DNA from: Patescibacteria group bacterium
GTDB taxonomy: Bacteria > Patescibacteriota > Patescibacteriia > Magasanikbacterales > GWA2-37-8
NCBI GenBank assembly: GCA_004321885.1
Contig: SCQK01000014.1
Coordinates: forward strand, 32,001 to 96,000
DNA length: 64,000 nucleotides
Direction of reading: 5' to 3'
Part shown: positions 34,036 to 60,601 of the stretch, piece by piece
How positions within the stretch are numbered: position 1 is the stretch's first letter
How the letters are laid out: each line of letters begins with the position of its first letter
Position numbers and translations under genes: made by a program
The notes under the pieces: generated by a model
Told to the model about the DNA's origin: nothing
Seen by the model: only the letters and a program-made list of their open reading frames with translations
The model's database searches: none

Positions 34036-34108
34036 TCGGGCTGGCGGGACTTGAACCCGCGGCCTCATGGTCCCGAACCATGCGCGCTACCAACTGCGCT
34101 ACAGCCCG
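34036..34108 (-). tRNA. tRNA-Pro(CGG)
   Basis: Minus-strand CGGGCTG-TA-GCGC-AGTTGGTA-GCGC-G-CATGG-TTCGGGA-CCATG-AGGCC-GCGGG-TTCAAGT-CCCGC-CAGCCCG-A. Anticodon CGG. Confidence 0.85.
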
Positions 34109-46332: not shown

Positions 46333-48147
46333 ATGACCGACACTCAAGCCATCAAAGACCGGCTGGATATTGTGCAAATCATCGGCGAATATCTGCAGTT
46401 GAAAAAAGCCGGGGCCAACTGGAAGGCCAACTGCCCATTTCATCAGGAGAAAACCCCGTCTTTTATGGTGCACCCGGAAAAGCAGATATTTCATTGCTTT
46501 GGCTGCGGCAAAGGCGGGGATGTTTTTACCTTTGTGCAGGAAATGGAAGGGTTTGATTTTCCCGAAGCCCTGAAATTTTTGGCTGACCGCGCCGGGGTGA
46601 AGATAGACACGTATCGCAGTGAAATAGACAAAAGCCAGCGCAACCGGATTTTGGAAATCAACAACAAGGCCGCGTATTTTTTTCATCATTTTTTACTGGA
46701 AATGCCCGGGGCGCAAAAGGCCCGCGATTATTTAACGGAAAGAAAATTAAAACCCGAAACAATAGAAGAATGGCAGGTGGGCTTTGTGCCTGACCAGTGG
46801 GACTTGCTTACGCAATATTTATTAAAAAAAGGATTTGGCATAGATGATTTGGTTTTAGCGGGGTTGACCATAAAAAGAGAAGGGGCCAGCTTGTACTCGG
46901 GCAAGGGTTTTTACGACCGTTTTCGCGGTCGCATCATGTTTCCCATTTGGGACGCGCACGATAATGTCGTCGGTTTTACGGGCAGGATTTTGGTGGAAAC
47001 CGAACATTCCGGCGGCAAGTACGTCAATACTCCCCAAACCCTGGTTTATGATAAGTCACGCGTGCTTTACGGCATAAACAAGGCCAAACAAGAAATAAAA
47101 GCCAAAGATTTGGCTGTGCTAGTGGAAGGACAAATGGACGTCATCGCTTGCCATCAGGCCGGCATGAAAAATGTCTTCGCGGTTTCGGGCACGGCCCTGA
47201 CTGCGGAGCAGATAAAATTAATAAAGCGATACACCAACAACGCGGCCTTTGCTTTTGACGTGGACGCGGCCGGGCAAAACGCGGCCAAGCGAGGGATAGA
47301 CGCGGCCATAGAACAAGGCTTGAACACAAAAATTGTTCAACTACCCGAAGGCGCCGGCAAAGACGCGGATGAGTGTATAAAAGCAAATTCACAAATTTGG
47401 TTCAAGGCTGTGGAACAAGCCAAGGATGTGATGCAATGGCTGTTTGAAAAAAATTTGGCCGGGGTGGATATAGTCGACCCCAAGCAAAAACAGAGAGCCG
47501 GGCACAATTTACTCATAGAAATCAGCCGTTTGCCTTATGCTTTGGAACGCGACCATTGGCTAAAAGTATTGGCTGAGCGCCTGCGTGTGGACGAGGAAGT
47601 ATTGAGAGAAGAAATGAAGAGCGCGGCCAAAGACGCGGCCAAAGAAGACAGGCGCGGCGGTTCCCCTCCCATTGATAAGAAGAGGGATGGGGAGGGGTCT
47701 GTGAACACATTAGTTGTTCAAACCCGCTATGACCTGCTCCTGCAGAATCTGTGGGCTTTGCTTCTTAAATACCCCTCGCTCATTAGCGCGTTTTGGAGCT
47801 CGCTGAAAGAGGACTATTTTTCCGGCACAGGGTTTGGATTGCTTTACGATTTGGCGAAAAAGAGGTATAATACCGGCAGTGTGTCGCCCGAGGATTTGAG
47901 GGCTGATTTTGGCAACCAAGAGCAAAATTTTATTGATGTTTTATTGCTCAAGGCAGACACCATTTATGGCGATTACAAAGAGAGTGAGAGCGCGAAAGAA
48001 ATTGAATTGATTTTGGCCGAGTTAAATAAAAGCTGGGTGAAAAACAAGCGTGAACAGCTGATGGAAAAATTGAAAGAAGCGCAAAAAAACGGGGATTTGG
48101 GCGAGGTTAAAGATATTTTGTATAAAATTATTGAGTTAAACGAATAA
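46333..48147 (+). CDS. dnaG: DNA primase
   Basis: Zn-finger CPFHQEKTPSFMVHPEKQIFHCFGCGKGGD, TOPRIM EGQMDV...SGTALT. ATG 46333 (the track start 46288 overlaps the upstream gene). Confidence 0.85.
   Translation: MTDTQAIKDRLDIVQIIGEYLQLKKAGANWKANCPFHQEKTPSFMVHPEKQIFHCFGCGKGGDVFTFVQEMEGFDFPEALKFLADRAGVKIDTYRSEIDKSQRNRILEINNKAAYFFHHFLLEMPGAQKARDYLTERKLKPETIEEWQVGFVPDQWDLLTQYLLKKGFGIDDLVLAGLTIKREGASLYSGKGFYDRFRGRIMFPIWDAHDNVVGFTGRILVETEHSGGKYVNTPQTLVYDKSRVLYGINKAKQEIKAKDLAVLVEGQMDVIACHQAGMKNVFAVSGTALTAEQIKLIKRYTNNAAFAFDVDAAGQNAAKRGIDAAIEQGLNTKIVQLPEGAGKDADECIKANSQIWFKAVEQAKDVMQWLFEKNLAGVDIVDPKQKQRAGHNLLIEISRLPYALERDHWLKVLAERLRVDEEVLREEMKSAAKDAAKEDRRGGSPPIDKKRDGEGSVNTLVVQTRYDLLLQNLWALLLKYPSLISAFWSSLKEDYFSGTGFGLLYDLAKKRYNTGSVSPEDLRADFGNQEQNFIDVLLLKADTIYGDYKESESAKEIELILAELNKSWVKNKREQLMEKLKEAQKNGDLGEVKDILYKIIELNE
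47663..47697. repeat. In-frame imperfect palindrome CCCCTCCC...GGGGAGGGG in dnaG
   Basis: Encodes GGSPPIDKKRDGEGS in the DnaG C-terminal linker. Confidence 0.45.
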
Positions 48148-48153
48148 CGCGTT

Positions 48154-49482
48154 ATGTCTAGAAAAAGAGGGAAAAAGGTTTTGGCGCGAAAAAAATTGAA
48201 GGTTACGAAGCGCCAAGCGCCAAAGCGCGCCGTAAAAAAAATCAAGCGGGTCAAGAAAAAAGCGCGCGCCTCCAAAGGCCGCAAAATAAAAAAGACGTTT
48301 AGGTCCGCGAAAAAGCCTGCCCATGCGGCAGGCAGGCCTGTTTTTGTTAAAGGTAAAAAATCCATACCGCCGCTGGAAGTTATCGCCGAGCCGACCGGCG
48401 AGCAAATTTGGGCGCTCATTGCCAAGGGGCGCAACCGCGGTTTTATCACCCAGATGGAATTGGAGCAGTTATTCTCTCGTCCCGAGCGCTATTTAGATTT
48501 GTACGAGGGTTTTATAGAAACGTTGGATAAAAACGGGGTCTCGCTGGTAGAGCACGTCGGCGGTCTTTTGGCCGACAAAAAAGACAAGCAGATAGTTTTG
48601 AAACAATTTCAGGGAGAACAACCGGACATGGATTCACCTTTTGATTTAGGGCAAATTTCTTCGGATTCAATTCAGATGTACTTGCGCGAAATCGGCAAGA
48701 TTCCGTTGCTTACCGGCGAGGAAGAAGTGTCTTTAGCCAAGCGTAAAGAGCGCGGCGATAAAGAGGCCGAGCAGAAATTAATTTCGGCCAATTTGCGCCT
48801 GGTGGTTTCTATTGCTAAAAAATTTATCGGCAAATCCCTGTCTTTGCTGGATTTGATTCAGGAAGGCAACATCGGCCTGTTTCGCGCCGTCAAAAAATTT
48901 GACTACCGCAAGGGCTATAAATTTTCCACCTACGCCACCTGGTGGATTCGTCAGGCCATTACCCGCGCCTTGGCGGACCAGAGTCGCACTATCCGCATTC
49001 CGGTGCACATGGTGGAAACCATCAACCGCTTCCAGCAGGTGCAGAGGCGGCTGTTGCAGGATTTGGGGCGCGACCCCACGCCCGAAGAATTGGCCGCCGA
49101 GATGGGCGAAGAGGTGGGCAAGATAAATCACATCATCAAAATTTCGCAGGAGACCGTGTCTTTGGAAATGTCCGTGGGCGACGACGATGACGATGATTCG
49201 TCTTTGCAGGATTTTGTGGAGGACGTGAAAAACTTGTCGCCGGACCGCGTGGCCGGCATGGAGATTTTGCGCGATTATGTCAAAGACGCCATCAAAGACC
49301 TGTCCCCGCGCGAGCAGAAAATTTTGGAAATGCGCTTTGGCCTCACCGACGGCGTAACCCACACCCTGGAAGAAGTGGGCAAGGAATTTGACGTGACCCG
49401 CGAGCGCATCCGCCAGATAGAAGCCAAGGCCCTGGAAAAAATCAAAGCCATGGGCATTATCAGCAAGTTGAGGGATTATTAA
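48154..49482 (+). CDS. rpoD: RNA polymerase sigma factor RpoD (sigma-70) with K/R-rich N-terminus
   Basis: Region 2 [39 protein letters not shown]. Region 4 [15 protein letters not shown]...[24 protein letters not shown]. Confidence 0.9.
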
Positions 49483-49498
49483 TCACAAACCTGTCAAT

Positions 49499-51106
49499 AT
49501 GGCAGAGAAACCGTCGCCCTTGTATTTACACAAGGAAAGCAGGGCTCTTGAACAACTGAGAGACGCTTCTTTGAGTAAGGAAAAATTAACATCCGAAGAT
49601 GTTAAGGAATATGTTGACGGGGTTTTGGATGAAATAAAAACCGCCACCAGTAAAAGAAAAAAAGAAAGTATTTTGGCGAAGGCTTTGGATAAAGAAATCG
49701 TCTTGCGATATTTAAGTACGGAAGAAAGTATTTTTGATGAACAATCTAAGGATGAAATTGAGGCCAAGGCCGATGTCGACGTCAGGACAATGGTTGCCGA
49801 GCGTCTTTTGAAGGCGATAATGGAAGAATTCCAGAAGAGGGGCGAGCACGATATTAATCTTTATACTCTATTGCATGGCAGAGGGATGATTAGCAGACTG
49901 GAAAGAACAGGGGGCGTTAATAGGATATACAAAGAGCATTTAACCAAGAGAGAAGGCATGCAGGAAGCAGACAAGCAGGCAAAGTATGGCGAAGGCCTGG
50001 AGGCGGCTAAAAAGACCATGCAAAAGTATATGCGCATGCCGAAAAGCGAGCATTTATTGCATGTATTCAAATTTGATCCTGACACCATGGCAGTGATAGT
50101 TCCGGAAATTCCGAATTATACCACTTTGGCGGATGTTGCTGATTTTCCAGAAAGAAATAAGTTAGCGGAGGCGTTGAAGATTTTGCTTGGAGGGATTGAA
50201 GGCGTGGAAGAATTAAGGAGGGCGGGCTTTATCATGCAGGATATCAAGGGGCTCAATATCGTAAAAATAGAGATTGTTAGAGAAGTAGAGGATACAGAGG
50301 GCAAAAAGACAATCATAAAAGAAACAAGCGGCGCGCTTCCCGATCTTGACGGTCTCACCCGAGAAAAAGATATTAAGAAAAATACGCGGTTATTTTTTGG
50401 AACACCGGGGCACGTGCCGCCGGAACTGGGAGAGGAAAAACAAACGCGAACAGCCGAAACCGGGCAGACCGTTTCTTTGGAGAGTCCGCCGATGGCTATA
50501 GCTGATGATGAAAGTGGTCGGGTCGATTCAGGGGATACCGAAATCAATGCCGCGCCGTCGACTACAGCAGAAGACGTCGCTCCCGGCGGTATTGATAAAG
50601 GGCAGGAAAATAAAGATATTTCTCGCGACCGCACGGTATTGGCTCCGACAGCGGCCATTTCTCCGGAAGATAGCAGTCATTTAAGGCCTAAGGTTATTTC
50701 CGAATTTAACCAAGGCGGTTACAAAGAAGAGGTTTTTCAATTAGGGAGATGTCTTGAGGATATCGTGGTTGCTTTACCGCATGAAATGGAAGACAAAAAC
50801 GCGGCTTCTCGCTTAAAGGATAATTATGCGGATCTAAAGGGTTTGCCTGGGAAAGACAGGAGGTCATTTATGGCGGAACTTTCTTCTTTATATCTAAAAA
50901 TGAAACAGAGGGACCCAAAAAAAAGGCCGAATTTAGAAGAGGTTAGCGCGATTTTAAGCGGTCTCATCAGGCGGTTGGAAAGTCGAGGCGCTGATACGCA
51001 GGCAATTGCCGAAATCTCAAGAAGAATTGAAGAGATGACGCCAACTGTTTCTGATACGACGAAGACGGCGATTGTTGACACAAAAATAGTAAAAAAAGCC
51101 GCATGA
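49499..51106 (+). CDS. Divergent Hanks-type Ser/Thr protein-kinase-like protein
   Basis: Gly-loop-like HGRGMISRL...RIYK, catalytic loop QDIKGLN (DxKxxN), DLDG (DFG-like), GTPGHVPPE (GTPxYxAPE), YKEEVFQLGRCLEDIV (subdomain IX), DPKKRPNLEEV (subdomain XI), with a long acidic insert. Confidence 0.5.
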   Translation: MAEKPSPLYLHKESRALEQLRDASLSKEKLTSEDVKEYVDGVLDEIKTATSKRKKESILAKALDKEIVLRYLSTEESIFDEQSKDEIEAKADVDVRTMVAERLLKAIMEEFQKRGEHDINLYTLLHGRGMISRLERTGGVNRIYKEHLTKREGMQEADKQAKYGEGLEAAKKTMQKYMRMPKSEHLLHVFKFDPDTMAVIVPEIPNYTTLADVADFPERNKLAEALKILLGGIEGVEELRRAGFIMQDIKGLNIVKIEIVREVEDTEGKKTIIKETSGALPDLDGLTREKDIKKNTRLFFGTPGHVPPELGEEKQTRTAETGQTVSLESPPMAIADDESGRVDSGDTEINAAPSTTAEDVAPGGIDKGQENKDISRDRTVLAPTAAISPEDSSHLRPKVISEFNQGGYKEEVFQLGRCLEDIVVALPHEMEDKNAASRLKDNYADLKGLPGKDRRSFMAELSSLYLKMKQRDPKKRPNLEEVSAILSGLIRRLESRGADTQAIAEISRRIEEMTPTVSDTTKTAIVDTKIVKKAA

Positions 51107-51137
51107 AAATATCCAAAGATATTTTCATGATTCGTTC

Positions 51138-51166
51138 GGAAATAGCCGCTTACAGCGGCTATTTCC
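51138..51166. repeat. 12-bp perfect hairpin GGAAATAGCCGC-ttaca-GCGGCTATTTCC
   Basis: Intergenic before murG. Preceded by a second hairpin at 51105-51126. No U-tract. Confidence 0.5.
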
Positions 51167-51176
51167 CTCACTCATT

Positions 51177-52256
51177 ATGAAAATAATGTTTTCCGGCGGG
51201 GGGACTTTGGGGCCGGTGACGCCGCTTTTGGCGGTGCACGAGATTTATCGCCGCCGCAATCCGGGGGCGAAATTTGTGTGGGTGGGCACAAAGCGCGGCC
51301 CAGAGAAAAAAATTTTGGAAAAATATAACATAGTTTTTTACGCGGTCACATCGTGCAAGTGGCGCCGCTATTTTTCTTTGCGCAACATCATAGACGCGAT
51401 TAAATTCGGCGTTGCTTTTTTCCAGTGTTTGATTTTGCTGTGGATAGAAACGCCCGACCTGCTTGTTTCCGCCGGCGGGTTCGTGAGCGTGCCTTTGCAT
51501 TGGGCCGGCGCCCTGCTGGGCATACCGGCCTGGGTTCATCAGCAAGACCCGAGCGTGGGATTGGCCAACAAATTGAACGCGCGTTTTGCCAAGAAAATTA
51601 CCACGGCCCTGCGCGACACCGCGCGATTTTTTCCCGAGAAAAAAACCGAATGGCTGGGCAACCCGGTGCGCGACCTGACAGTGGGCGATGCGCAAGCGGC
51701 GCGCGGGCGTTTGGGTTTGCCGCTGACCGGCCCGGTTATTTTTGCCTTGGGCGGCGGCACCGGGGCCTCAAAATTAAACGAGCTGGTGTTGCAATCCTTG
51801 GCTTCTCTGCCCAAGGATTGGCAGGTCATTCATCTGCTCGGCGACAGACCCATGGAAATGGCCGAGCGGGCCGCGCAGACATTTACCAATTACCATCCGC
51901 GCCAATTTTTTACTCACGAGATGAAAGACGCCTACGCGGCGGCTGATGTGGTTATCGCGCGCGCCGGTTTTGGCACCATCAGCGAGCTGGCGGCCCTGGG
52001 CAAGGCCGCGGTCATAATTCCTATGCCCGGCTCGCATCAGGAAGAAAACGCGAAATTGCTTTCAGCCAACAAAGCGGCCATCGTGCTCCGCGAAGAAACA
52101 GCTAACGGAATGAAGCTGGCGCATATCGTGGATGAGATTGCGCGCTATCCGGAATTCAAAGATTATCTCGGCAACCGCTTGCGCTCTATTTTACCGCCGG
52201 CTAGGCCCGAGAGGGTCGTGGAAATTATTGAAGAACTTACAGAATCAAAGAAATAA
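51177..52256 (+). CDS. murG: UDP-GlcNAc:undecaprenyl-PP-MurNAc-pentapeptide GlcNAc transferase
   Basis: MKIMFSGGGTLGPVTPLLAV N-terminal G-loop, C-terminal GT-B domain, 359 aa. Confidence 0.85.
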   Translation: MKIMFSGGGTLGPVTPLLAVHEIYRRRNPGAKFVWVGTKRGPEKKILEKYNIVFYAVTSCKWRRYFSLRNIIDAIKFGVAFFQCLILLWIETPDLLVSAGGFVSVPLHWAGALLGIPAWVHQQDPSVGLANKLNARFAKKITTALRDTARFFPEKKTEWLGNPVRDLTVGDAQAARGRLGLPLTGPVIFALGGGTGASKLNELVLQSLASLPKDWQVIHLLGDRPMEMAERAAQTFTNYHPRQFFTHEMKDAYAAADVVIARAGFGTISELAALGKAAVIIPMPGSHQEENAKLLSANKAAIVLREETANGMKLAHIVDEIARYPEFKDYLGNRLRSILPPARPERVVEIIEELTESKK

Positions 52257-54473: not shown

Positions 54474-54546
54474 TGACCCGGCTGGGATTCGAACCCAGGA
54501 CCTCTTCCTTAAAAGGGAATTGCTCTACCAACTGAGCTACCGGGCC
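54474..54546 (-). tRNA. tRNA-Lys(UUU)
   Basis: Minus-strand GGCCCGG-TA-GCTC-AGTTGGTA-GAGC-A-ATTCC-CTTTTAA-GGAAG-AGGTC-CTGGG-TTCGAAT-CCCAG-CCGGGTC-A. Anticodon TTT. Confidence 0.85.
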
Positions 54547-54634: not shown

Positions 54635-55207
54635 ATGCTCAATAAAAAGTATTTTCAAAAAGTCCGGGGAGATTTGTTAAATTATGCCGGCGTGCACCGT
54701 GAGGTGATAAAAATTTGCGGTGATGCCCAGCATTTAGCCAAAAAAGCCATTTTTGCCATGCAAAGAGACGGGGGCAAAGACGCGGACAAGCTTTTGGAGC
54801 AGGCGCGCGCGCTTTTGGCCGGTCTGCAAAAAAAGCACGCCAAAGACAGCCGCGTGTTTGACGAGGGCGCCTACAAAGCGGCTATGGAGGAGTTCGCGGA
54901 AGCGGCGCTGTTTTCGGAATATTTGCGGGGCGAAGAAATGGGTGAAATAAAAAATTTAAACGTCAGTTCGGAAAGTTTCGTCGGCGGTTTGTGTGATGTG
55001 CCGGGCGAACTCTTGCGTTATGCCATCAAGTCGGCCACGGAAAAGGATTTCAAAAAAGTAAAAAAATGTTTTGACGCGGCCGATGCTGTTTTGCGTGAAT
55101 TAATGGACATGGACTTGACCGGATACAACCGCCAGAAATTTGACCAGGCCAAACAGGCCTGGTACAAGCTGGAGCAGGTGGCGTATGAGGTGAGCATGAA
55201 GGGGTGA
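54635..55207 (+). CDS. Hypothetical all-helical protein, possible translin-family
   Basis: 190 aa. C-terminus YKLEQVAYEVSMKG and GAYKAAMEEFAEAALFSEYLRGEE resemble translin C-terminal motifs. Weak. Confidence 0.35.
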   Translation: MLNKKYFQKVRGDLLNYAGVHREVIKICGDAQHLAKKAIFAMQRDGGKDADKLLEQARALLAGLQKKHAKDSRVFDEGAYKAAMEEFAEAALFSEYLRGEEMGEIKNLNVSSESFVGGLCDVPGELLRYAIKSATEKDFKKVKKCFDAADAVLRELMDMDLTGYNRQKFDQAKQAWYKLEQVAYEVSMKG

Positions 55208-55209
55208 GT

Positions 55210-56499
55210 ATGAAGAGAATGTTTCATTTGTTAATCGCGTGGCTGGCCTATTGGTTTTACGGCCGGCCGGCGAGAAAATTGATTGTGGTGGGCGTTACCG
55301 GCACCAAGGGTAAATCCACCGCCTGCCGGCTCATCGCTTCGGTGATGGAAGCCGGCGGGCACAAAGTCGGTCTGCTTACCACGGTGGAGTTTCAAATAGC
55401 GGACAAGCGCTGGGCCAATGACAAAAAAATGACCATGCTCGGGCGCGGGCAGATTCAAAAAATGCTGGCGGAAATGGTGAAAGCTGGTTGCCGCTATGCC
55501 GTGGTAGAGACATCGTCAGAGGGAATTTTGCAATTTCGGCATTATGGTTTGAATTACGACATCGCCGTGTTCATGAATTTGGGCGAAGAGCACAGCGAAC
55601 GTCACGGCGGATTTGCCAATTTGAAACGTGATAAGGGAAAAATGTTCGCCGGTCTGAACCGGGCGCGCCGCAAAATTATCGGCGGCAAATCAGTGCCTAA
55701 AGTTATCGTGGCAAACGTTGACGATGAAAACGCGAAATACTACATGTCTTTCGCGGCTGATGAAAAATACGAATTTGGAATGCGCGACGCGAACATTACA
55801 AAGAGCGATGAAAGCGGCGTGGAGTTCGCGGCGCAAAATGTAAAATACAAAATAAATTTAGTGGGTGAGTTCAATGTTTATAACGCCTTGGCCGCGATAG
55901 CCGTGGGCAAGTCGCAAGGAATAAGCGAAGCGCAAATCGCGGCCGGATTGGCGAGCGTGAAACTGGTGCCGGGCAGGATGGAGTTTATAAACGAAGGGCA
56001 GGATTTCAAAGTGGTGGTTGACTACGCTCATGAGCCGATGAGTTTGACCGAACTATTCAAAACTTTGCGCCGGCTGATTGGGCCGCAGAACAAAATTATC
56101 GCCGTGGTCGGCTCGGACGGCGGCGGCCGCGACAAAGGCAAGCGCGCTAAAATGGGCGAGATAGCGGGCCGGCTCACCGACCGCGTGGTTATCACTGATG
56201 TAAATTGTTTTGATGAAGATCCCAAGTCCATTGCCGAGATGCTCGCGGCCGGGGCGCGCGCGGCCGGCAAAACAGAGAGCATTGATTTGTTTATAGAGCT
56301 GGACCGTGCCAAGGCGATGGAAAAAGCAATGTCGCTGGCCGGCGCTGGCGACGCCGTGGTTATCACGGCCAAAGGCACCGAGCAGTGGATTGCCGTGGCC
56401 AAGGGCAAGAAAATTCCGTGGGACGACAGAGAAGTGGCGCGAAAAATTTTGAATCAAATACCCAGCCCAAGCAAGTGTATTAGTGTGATTAGTGAATAA
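55210..56499 (+). CDS. murE: UDP-N-acetylmuramoyl-L-alanyl-D-glutamate--2,6-diaminopimelate (or L-Lys) ligase
   Basis: VGVTGTKGKSTACRLI P-loop, DYAHEPMSL, GSDGGGRDKGKR. Confidence 0.7.
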   Translation: MKRMFHLLIAWLAYWFYGRPARKLIVVGVTGTKGKSTACRLIASVMEAGGHKVGLLTTVEFQIADKRWANDKKMTMLGRGQIQKMLAEMVKAGCRYAVVETSSEGILQFRHYGLNYDIAVFMNLGEEHSERHGGFANLKRDKGKMFAGLNRARRKIIGGKSVPKVIVANVDDENAKYYMSFAADEKYEFGMRDANITKSDESGVEFAAQNVKYKINLVGEFNVYNALAAIAVGKSQGISEAQIAAGLASVKLVPGRMEFINEGQDFKVVVDYAHEPMSLTELFKTLRRLIGPQNKIIAVVGSDGGGRDKGKRAKMGEIAGRLTDRVVITDVNCFDEDPKSIAEMLAAGARAAGKTESIDLFIELDRAKAMEKAMSLAGAGDAVVITAKGTEQWIAVAKGKKIPWDDREVARKILNQIPSPSKCISVISE

Positions 56500-56512
56500 G
56501 ATTAGTGGTTCT

Positions 56513-57151
56513 ATGTCTCTCATTAAAAAAATCCAGCCGCGCGAGGGCGAGCTCGTGGTGCGCGCGGTCTATCGCTACCAGCTGACAAACTGGTGGAAGT
56601 ACATGCTGGGTTTCGCGCTCTTGTTCGCGGCCTCGTTTTTCATGTTTCGGTTTTTTTCCTGGGGGCTTTTCGGTTACGGGCTTTTCGGCGTTTGTGTTCT
56701 TGTCGGTGCCATGTTCATTTTAAGAACATACATATTCAATCGCACGAATTGCCTTGTTATCACCGACCAGAGGGTCGTTGACATCAATCGCGTCAGCATG
56801 TTTGACGAGGTGATTTCTTCGGTCGGGCATCATGATATTTTGGACGTTTCAGCCAGGCGCAACGGCATTTTGGAAAATATTTTCAATTACGGCGGCATCA
56901 GCATTCATACCAAAAACAGCCAGTTCGCGCTGGATATCGTGAAAGTGCGCCGTCCGATTGACGTGCAGGCTGTCATTTTGGAGCTGGGCGACCGCCACTT
57001 GCGCGCCCGCGCCGCGAGCGATTCGGCCGCCGTTTGCCGCGGCTTTATCAAAATAATTCCCGAACTCTCGCAGAAAGACCTTATAGCTATCGGCAATTTG
57101 ATAAATGAACAGATAGATAAGGTTTCGCCTTTCGGAGAGCGTCAAATATGA
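56513..57151 (+). CDS. Membrane protein with bacterial PH-like domain (DUF304/YdbS-like)
   Basis: Two TM helices followed by LVITDQRVVDINRV...GGISIHTKNSQFALDIV. ATG 56513 (the track start is GTG inside the murE stop region). Confidence 0.45.
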   Translation: MSLIKKIQPREGELVVRAVYRYQLTNWWKYMLGFALLFAASFFMFRFFSWGLFGYGLFGVCVLVGAMFILRTYIFNRTNCLVITDQRVVDINRVSMFDEVISSVGHHDILDVSARRNGILENIFNYGGISIHTKNSQFALDIVKVRRPIDVQAVILELGDRHLRARAASDSAAVCRGFIKIIPELSQKDLIAIGNLINEQIDKVSPFGERQI

Positions 57152-58595: not shown

Positions 58596-58787
58596 TGGAG
58601 CGGGATACGAGAATCGAACTCGCATCTCTTGCTTGCCCCCACACCAATAATATTGAGCGGACGATGGGAATCGAACCCACGCCTCAACCTTGGGAAGGTC
58701 GCATACTACCATTATACTACGCCCGCGTATCGCACTATTGGTGTGGGGGCTTGGGAAGCAAGCATACTGCCACTGTACTAATCCCGC
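58596..58787 (-). tRNA. Split tRNA-Gly(CCC) gene: 5' half 58787-58751 and 3' half 58632-58596 (CCA encoded), interrupted at position 37/38 by a 118-nt intervening sequence
   Basis: Halves join to GCGGGAT-TA-GTAC-AGTGGCA-GTAT-G-CTTGC-TTCCCAA-GCAAG-AGAT-GCGAG-TTCGATT-CTCGT-ATCCCGC-T-CCA with perfect acceptor and anticodon stems. Intervening sequence is bounded by 15-bp inverted repeats GCCCCCACACCAATA/TATTGGTGTGGGGGC. Confidence 0.55.
58656..58726 (-). tRNA. tRNA-Gly(CCC), intact, nested inside the split tRNA-Gly intervening sequence
   Basis: GCGGGCG-TA-GTAT-AATGGTA-GTAT-G-CGACC-TTCCCAA-GGTTG-AGGC-GTGGG-TTCGATT-CCCAT-CGTCCGC-T. Confidence 0.8.
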
Positions 58788-58792
58788 GATTG

Positions 58793-58865
58793 AGCCGACC
58801 ATGGGACTCGGACCCATAACCTACGGTTTACGATACCGTTGCTCTACCAGTTGAGCTAGGTCGGC
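58793..58865 (-). tRNA. tRNA-Thr(CGU)
   Basis: GCCGACC-TA-GCTC-AACTGGTA-GAGC-A-ACGGT-ATCGTAA-ACCGT-AGGTT-ATGGG-TCCGAGT-CCCAT-GGTCGGC-T. Confidence 0.85.
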
Positions 58866-60530: not shown

Positions 60531-60601
60531 TCCGGGGTCGTCCAATGGCAAGACAGAGGCCTTTGAAGCCTCTTATCCAGGTCCGAATCCTGGCCCCGGA
60601 A
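60531..60601 (+). tRNA. tRNA-Gln(UUG)
   Basis: TCCGGGG-TC-GTC-CAATGGCAA-GAC-A-GAGGC-CTTTGAA-GCCTC-TTAT-CCAGG-TCCGAAT-CCTGG-CCCCGGA-A. U1-A72 pair typical of tRNA-Gln. Confidence 0.8.

Follow-up and report, generated by a model that had tools for sequence, protein, structure and literature searches.

The 64,000-nucleotide stretch analysed here (the window) comes from contig SCQK01000014.1 of a Patescibacteria group bacterium and carries, on its forward strand, the genes dnaG, rpoD and murG, with a complete open reading frame (ORF) between rpoD and murG that encodes a protein of 535 residues (the gene and its family are hereafter called KIN). On the evidence of profile searches and predicted structure, residues ~125–513 of this protein have a Hanks-type (eukaryotic-type) protein kinase fold and are homologous to protein kinases. 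A sequence-only reading of the window had proposed a divergent eukaryotic-like kinase domain encoded directly downstream of rpoD; the domain is borne out by profile-sequence, structure-prediction and fold-search evidence, and the position by a gap of 16 nt between the end of rpoD and the ORF. Because the gap is this short and contains no terminator-like site, KIN is probably co-transcribed with rpoD; promoter-like sites occur at chance level (7 found, 6.9 expected).

The deposited annotation of the gene, a 473-residue 'hypothetical protein EPN28_04170', begins at a TTG that is codon 63 of the ORF (window 49499–49687). We prefer the ATG at 49499 because the similarity to relatives extends upstream of the TTG, that is, relatives align from about residue 10 of the 535-residue protein and all members of the family share a [DE]-[IV]-[KR]-x-Y-[AV] motif at residues 33–39.

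Fold and domain layout

Searches with the single sequence say little about the protein: NCBIfam returned nothing, PHROGs returned nothing meaningful, and phmmer against the PDB sequences gave spurious matches only (ribosomal S25, NK-lysin). Scanned exhaustively with phmmer, a set of 1.84 billion representative proteins yielded no more than four relatives in addition to the deposited copy (E-values of 4e-8 to 3e-5, 25–31% identity). The profile of the window protein and these four relatives, when searched against the PDB, gave 827 matches at E<=10, and the best 60 of the 827 are all protein kinases; the leading matches are PKR (E 4e-9), LKB1, KSR1, CDPKs, DAPKs and BRAF, with an alignment that spans strand β3 to helix αI. 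Four of the five members also match the Pfam Pkinase family individually (best E-value 2.1e-7). With a 15-sequence profile, 171 PDB matches were obtained at E<=1e-3, and again the best 60 of these are all protein kinases. When the first structural model was compared with known structures using Foldseek, IRAK4 ranked first (E 2e-6) and the top 50 matches were kinases throughout; in neither the profile searches nor the fold searches did an unrelated fold score better.

We built an AlphaFold2 (AF2) model on the 15-sequence alignment. In AF2 model 2 the C-lobe has a predicted local distance difference test score (pLDDT) of 80–94 and kinase topology, and residues 312–404 are disordered. The elements follow one another as β3 (ending at K145), αC, β4–β5, αD, αE, catalytic loop, β7–β8, DFG, activation segment, αEF, αF, αH and αI, that is, the predicted protein has the bilobal protein kinase fold (Table 1). 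The four motif strings quoted in the sequence-only reading are all present: DIKGLN (residues 248–253), GTPGHVPPE (301–309), YKEEVFQLGRCLEDIV (408–423) and DPKKRPNLEEV (472–482). The acidic insert that follows the APE motif had been put at 120 residues; by our measurement it has ~93–98 residues, with a net charge of −10. It is missing in all 25 relatives, P0004 alone having a short insertion at this place, and its GC content is 0.51 compared with 0.43 in the remainder of the ORF; tandem repeats can be ruled out as its source, as it contains none.

The N-terminal domain (residues 1–118) matched no known fold or family. No transmembrane segment was found in the window protein (maximum KD19 0.98), and Pfam gave no match in it to a sensor domain, PASTA included; the protein is soluble and cytoplasmic.

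Table 1. Coordinates of the kinase-like gene, the elements of its product and other features (window positions unless a locus is named; aa, residues of the 535-residue protein)
Feature	Position	Strand	Remarks
dnaG primase	46333..48147	+	Pfam Zn-ribbon, DNAG_N, Toprim
rpoD, primary sigma-70	48154..49482	+	Pfam sigma-70 regions 1.1 to 4
Kinase-like ORF, complete, 535 aa + stop	49499..51106	+	ATG 49499 is the likelier start
N-terminal helical domain, family-specific, aa 1–118	49499..49852	+	[DE]-[IV]-[KR]-x-Y-[AV] motif, aa 33–39
Kinase N-lobe, aa ~125–205	49871..50113	+	predicted strands 131–137 and 140–145; αC helix 156–178; β4, β5
K145 codon, β3 lysine equivalent	49931..49933	+	Lys/Arg in every member covering the region
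Catalytic loop MQDIKGLN, aa 246–253	50234..50257	+	HRD His/Arg replaced by [LM][QT]
Elongated β7–β8 hairpin, aa 254–281	50258..50341	+	~10-aa insertion, window protein only
DFG-equivalent DLDG, aa 282–285	50342..50353	+	D282 and G285 invariant; 284 always Asp/Glu
Activation segment, aa 286–309, C-terminal end GTPGHVPPE	50354..50425	+	P308 invariant
Acidic Ser/Thr-rich disordered insert, aa 312–404	50432..50710	+	between APE motif and αF helix
αF helix, aa 405–424, E410..Q414.G416	50711..50770	+	G416 invariant; pLDDT ~93
αH and αI helices, aa 451–513, with DPKKRP	50849..51037	+	R476 is the PKA R280 equivalent
Two perfect hairpins, KIN-murG spacer	51102–51129 and 51139–51165	+	spacer specific to window genome
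murG, GT28 N- and C-terminal domains	51177..52256	+	Pfam; directly 3' of the kinase-like gene
Mur-ligase-family protein, 431 aa	55204–56499		middle and C-terminal domains only
tRNA gene (Rfam)	34036–34108	-	
tRNA gene (Rfam)	54474–54546	-	
tRNA gene (Rfam)	58656–58726	-	
tRNA gene (Rfam)	58793–58865	-	
tRNA gene (Rfam)	60531–60601	+	
129-aa membrane ORF, locus L013	1949–2338		equivalents in L019, L021, L022
129-aa membrane ORF, locus L015	5610–5999		equivalents in L019, L021, L022

Conserved residues and predicted activity

We enlarged the family to 26 members by scanning genome and metagenome contigs for sequence patterns and by running a word-indexed search with an alignment trimmed to the C-lobe; the trimmed core added 10 of the members. 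The same search with the full protein or the first alignment returned only the protein itself, probably because low-complexity words swamped it. Conservation was counted over the 26 members, which share 15–30% identity (numbering of the window protein, PKA equivalents in brackets). The catalytic Asp D248 (D166), the DFG Asp D282 (D184), G285 of the D-x-[DE]-G motif, P308 of PPE and the αF Gly G416 are found in 26/26; the catalytic-loop Asn N253 (N171) and the APE Glu E309 are found in 25/26, and R476 (R280) in 24/26. At the αF Gly, Q/E-[LF]-G stands where W-S-x-G is expected. Position 284, between the DFG Asp and the Gly, is Asp or Glu in all members, an acidic residue that HMMER inserts between F and G instead of aligning it with position 186 itself. 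The β3 column (K145; K72), which aligns with the lysine of VIK in PKR, is always Lys or Arg, with Arg in six members. The Gly-loop/VAIK region had been described as degenerate; this holds for the Gly-rich loop, which is not conserved, but not for the β3 lysine, which is present.

In PMC1821047, Kannan et al. name ten residues as key to the kinase-like superfamily (G52, K72, E91, P104, H158, H164, D166, N171, D184, D220) and treat the APE motif, the αF W-[SA]-x-G and R280 as one network found specifically in eukaryotic protein kinases (ePKs) and pknB; according to Taylor et al. (PMC3415842), EPKs are set apart from ePK-like kinases (ELKs) by the activation segment and the GHI subdomain. The features of this network are present in KIN (the APE Glu, the αF Gly, the R280 equivalent, an activation segment, and predicted αF, αH and αI helices). 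Because KIN has what these two papers use to distinguish protein kinases, the family, by its conservation pattern, sits on the protein-kinase side, with the minimal catalytic set kept and the regulatory and ATP-clamp residues lost.

The reading that we favour, with moderate confidence, is that KIN encodes a soluble protein of Hanks-type fold, with a family-specific N-terminal domain and a lineage-specific acidic loop, that acts as a catalytically active protein Ser/Thr phosphotransferase; that it is an active enzyme, a protein kinase being its most likely form, appears likely from its residues. In this reading D248 would serve as catalytic base, metal-ATP would be bound by N253 and D282, and K145 would hold the phosphates, aided by the invariant acidic residue of D-x-[DE]-G. 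The last arrangement would resemble, by analogy, a pairing in choline-kinase-type families, in which K72-to-Arg co-occurs with changes in the Gly-loop and with G186-to-Glu, the Arg being stabilised by the acidic residue; the R72/E186 pairing, together with Gly-loop changes, is reported in active choline kinases (PMC1821047). By the same analogy, and with an N-lobe model too uncertain to place the residues, such a pairing may be why Lys and Arg interchange at β3 and the Gly-rich loop is dispensable; covariation between Lys/Arg at β3 and Asp/Glu at 284 is not visible by eye. The HRD Arg is tied to the activation-loop phosphate (Kannan et al., PMC1821047); because this Arg is absent, KIN would be a non-RD kinase in which phosphorylation of the activation loop is probably not the on-switch. 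Regulation would more likely occur via the N-terminal domain or, in the window protein, via the acidic insert.

Several observations weigh against an active protein kinase. The single window sequence scores only 15.2 bits against Pfam Pkinase (PF00069; E 0.014, residues 180–313), below the gathering score of 31.7, and the N-lobe strands are modelled with low confidence (pLDDT ~40–55 at 120–165), which leaves the nucleotide pocket ill-defined in the model. Of the ten key residues of the superfamily, five are absent or not conserved: the Gly-rich loop GxGxxG (G52), where the window has HGRGMIS at 126–132 and no Gly is conserved in the family; the αC Glu (E91), for which E168 lies in the predicted αC and the best-aligned column, which HMMER places two positions away from PKR E308, is Glu in only 11/26; H158, which is not conserved among the 26 members; H164, lost together with R165 of HRD (MQD in the window, [LM] in 26/26 and Q/T in 13/13 in the family); and D220, a position split between Glu and Ser. 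In addition, just 10/26 members have Lys at position 250 of DxKxxN, and no phosphatase (PP2C), FHA protein or second kinase is encoded between 39.8 and 58.6 kb. Finally, KIN evolves much faster than its neighbours, a striking disparity when identities to the window are compared: the kinase-like protein reaches 24–27% in the four syntenic copies that are complete and 34% (155 aligned residues) in the truncated copy at locus L010, with values of 78–88% for RpoD, 64% for DnaG and 54–60% for MurG. Such very fast divergence could also reflect relaxed constraint.

The lost and variable residues, the Arg at β3 in six members, the fast divergence, and the presence of IRAK3 and other pseudokinases among the best structural matches are the points in favour of a pseudokinase, that is, a fold kept as a scaffold or allosteric module, perhaps nucleotide-binding, that does not transfer phosphate. 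We consider this unlikely. The sequence-based definition given in a passage of PMC13519141 is the loss of at least one of the β3 Lys, the catalytic Asp and the DFG Asp; the window protein has all three (K145, D248, D282), and the six relatives with Arg at β3 would formally count as pseudokinases. Nearly every key residue has been lost in some lineage of active kinase families (PMC1821047), and this includes each of the other key residues lost in KIN. The invariance or near-invariance of D248, N253 and D282 at 15–30% identity would be hard to explain otherwise and therefore argues for selection on catalysis. The sequence-only reading had left the choice between an active atypical kinase and a pseudokinase open; the evidence leans toward the active kinase.

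A second alternative retains catalysis and changes the substrate, with KIN as a small-molecule kinase (for a lipid, sugar or cell-wall precursor) or an enzyme of some other nucleotide-dependent chemistry, for example AMPylation. The choline/aminoglycoside kinase (CAK) families do resemble KIN in that Arg may stand at β3, the DFG Gly position is occupied or adjoined by an acidic residue, and the Gly-loop departs from the canonical form (PMC1821047); moreover, K250, the Lys of DxKxxN in Ser/Thr kinases, is unconserved, and murG, murJ or Mur ligases adjoin KIN in three separate contexts. KIN has an ePK activation segment, an APE motif and a GHI network, none of which CAK enzymes possess; all of the listed profile and fold matches are protein kinases or pseudokinases, with no structure of the aminoglycoside- or choline-kinase type among the 60 fold-search matches listed; and Pfam gives no match to the APH/choline-kinase family PF01636, for the window protein or for the members searched. 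This alternative is therefore very unlikely.

The family and its gene neighbourhoods

All members are named 'hypothetical protein' at their source, and those from the word-indexed search have no precomputed Pfam domain. The source labels are Patescibacteria group, Parcubacteria, Candidatus Uhrbacteria and Candidatus Magasanikbacteria, with three records labelled otherwise: loci L007 (DATION010000004.1), L005 and L009 are labelled 'Candidatus Udaeobacter' or 'uncultured Gammaproteobacteria'. At least the 'Udaeobacter' label of L007 looks wrong, since identity to the window is 64% for its DnaG and 78% for its RpoD. Relatives were not found in viral contigs, and we found no description of the family in the literature; PMC13622651 deals with host kinases, not with kinases of Patescibacteria. 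As far as its sequences tell, this is an unannotated, fast-diverging family, so far mainly from Patescibacteria. An HMM search found no paralogue in the window; tandem duplicates occur at three other loci (L006, 3028–5861; L007, 3817–6014; L021, 1114–3466), with no more than 40% identity between the paralogues at L007.

The order dnaG-rpoD-KIN-murG is found in the window and in loci L007 and L008, and rpoD-KIN-murG in L003 and L011; L010, truncated upstream, contains only KIN-murG. In the relatives KIN and murG overlap or are at most 10 nt apart. Elsewhere the context differs: at least eight loci have the order murJ-lepA-(NUDIX)-129-aa membrane ORF-KIN-recJ, in other places KIN follows pheS-pheT and precedes the gene of an SH3_3 protein or lies near dinB and lexA, and in an Uhrbacteria genome a tandem pair of KIN genes lies between two Mur ligases.

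The co-occurrence of KIN with rpoD is therefore real in the window, L003, L007, L008 and L011 and absent in every other clade. The loci that share it are close relatives, as their RpoD identities indicate, so a shared gene order is expected from ancestry; the adjacency looks like inherited synteny and not a functional link. The sequence-only reading had suggested that the kinase or pseudokinase regulates the sigma factor or primase, which would account for its operon position, and this finds no support in an adjacency confined to one clade. Although the order is kept among these five loci, the 16-nt gap has no terminator-like site and the acidic insert might, speculatively, contact basic partners, specific regulation of RpoD and/or DnaG is highly improbable given the descent of the order, the clades that lack the linkage, and the fold of the known anti-sigma Ser kinases (SpoIIAB/RsbW), which is GHKL; the window protein has the ePK fold and no Pfam match to HATPase_c. 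Conservation of rpoD adjacency among related genomes is thus, as a caution, not evidence for a functional link.

In the second clade, the 129-aa ORF that precedes KIN encodes a well-conserved polytopic membrane protein for which Pfam has no match, and it always ends 1 nt before KIN; such spacing hints at translational coupling, and the protein may be a membrane partner. An HMM search found no counterpart of it in the window or in the clade-A loci.

The only theme that recurs across independent contexts is the proximity of lipid II/peptidoglycan genes (murG, murJ and Mur ligases). This neighbourhood is a weak hint, the sole one to a pathway that is family-wide, and is a post hoc observation. 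It recalls the role of PknB-type kinases in wall synthesis. KIN might be a Patescibacteria-specific active lineage that combines an ePK substrate lobe with a choline-kinase-like nucleotide pocket and controls lipid II/peptidoglycan synthesis or growth in minimal episymbionts, with the fast divergence and repeated tandem duplication as adaptation to lineage-specific partners or hosts; we regard this scenario as unlikely. The window also has a Mur-ligase-family gene, followed by an overlapping ORF of 219 residues with no Pfam match at E<=0.001 (55204–57151), an arrangement reminiscent of MurT/GatD-type pairs.

Other features of the window concern its neighbouring genes and spacers. The mechanical ORF of dnaG begins at TTG 46288; the DnaG proteins of L007 and L008 begin with MTDTQAIKDRLDI, and the window's counterpart of that beginning is ATG 46333, which by this comparison is the likely start. 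The KIN-murG spacer is 70 nt long; its first hairpin has a 12-bp AT-rich stem that overlaps the stop codon of KIN, and its second a 13-bp stem. The spacer RNA has a minimum free energy of −34.8 kcal/mol (z −8.8), and neither hairpin is followed by a T-run. We rejected a dispersed repeat as their identity because each is unique in the window. At gathering threshold, Rfam identified five tRNA genes and nothing else in the whole window. A protein of 190 residues at 54635–55207 matches the Translin family (PF01997, E 8e-17), which is mainly eukaryotic and archaeal and uncommon in bacteria. PADLOC gave weak matches to the defence proteins mad6 (E 2.9e-4) and MkoA (E 1.1e-3); KIN has no defence genes nearby, and the search of viral contigs gave no relative. 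The matched segments (49964–50263 and 50708–51058, residues 156–255 and 404–520) probably reflect the kinase-like segments.

Comparison with known kinases and significance

The Hanks-type Ser/Thr kinases of other bacteria (e.g., PknB of M. tuberculosis, PknS of Xanthomonas and PknG of Corynebacterium) differ from the KIN family in several respects: KIN has no GxGxxG loop, has [LM][QT]D in place of HRD and D-x-[DE]-G in place of DFG, accepts Lys or Arg at β3, and does not conserve the αC Glu; it also has no transmembrane segment, PASTA or other sensor domain, carries its own N-terminal helical domain, and in the window sequence scores below the Pfam gathering threshold. The best structural matches belong to the IRAK/RIPK/receptor-like-kinase group (ScRIPK, IRAK3, IRAK4, RIPK3, LYK3), with which the protein shares 13–18% identity and no accessory domains; this resemblance is that of the generic kinase core and not of specific ancestry. 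What is new here, on the sequences compared, is a soluble Hanks-type kinase family with an unusual set of motifs ([LM][QT]D, D-x-[DE]-G, Lys/Arg at β3, no Gly-loop) and an N-terminal domain of its own. The mechanistic surprise is limited as long as it is drawn from sequence and model.

The family is a natural experiment in the drift of the kinase core: the Asp/Asn/Asp set is kept, the Gly-loop and the HRD His and Arg are lost, the αC Glu and H158 are not conserved, and Lys and Arg are exchanged at β3. Patescibacteria have tiny genomes, scant recognisable signalling machinery and a proteome much of which is "hypothetical"; for their annotation it is useful that an unnamed family without a precomputed Pfam domain can be assigned a fold with confidence and given a catalytic hypothesis that experiments can address.

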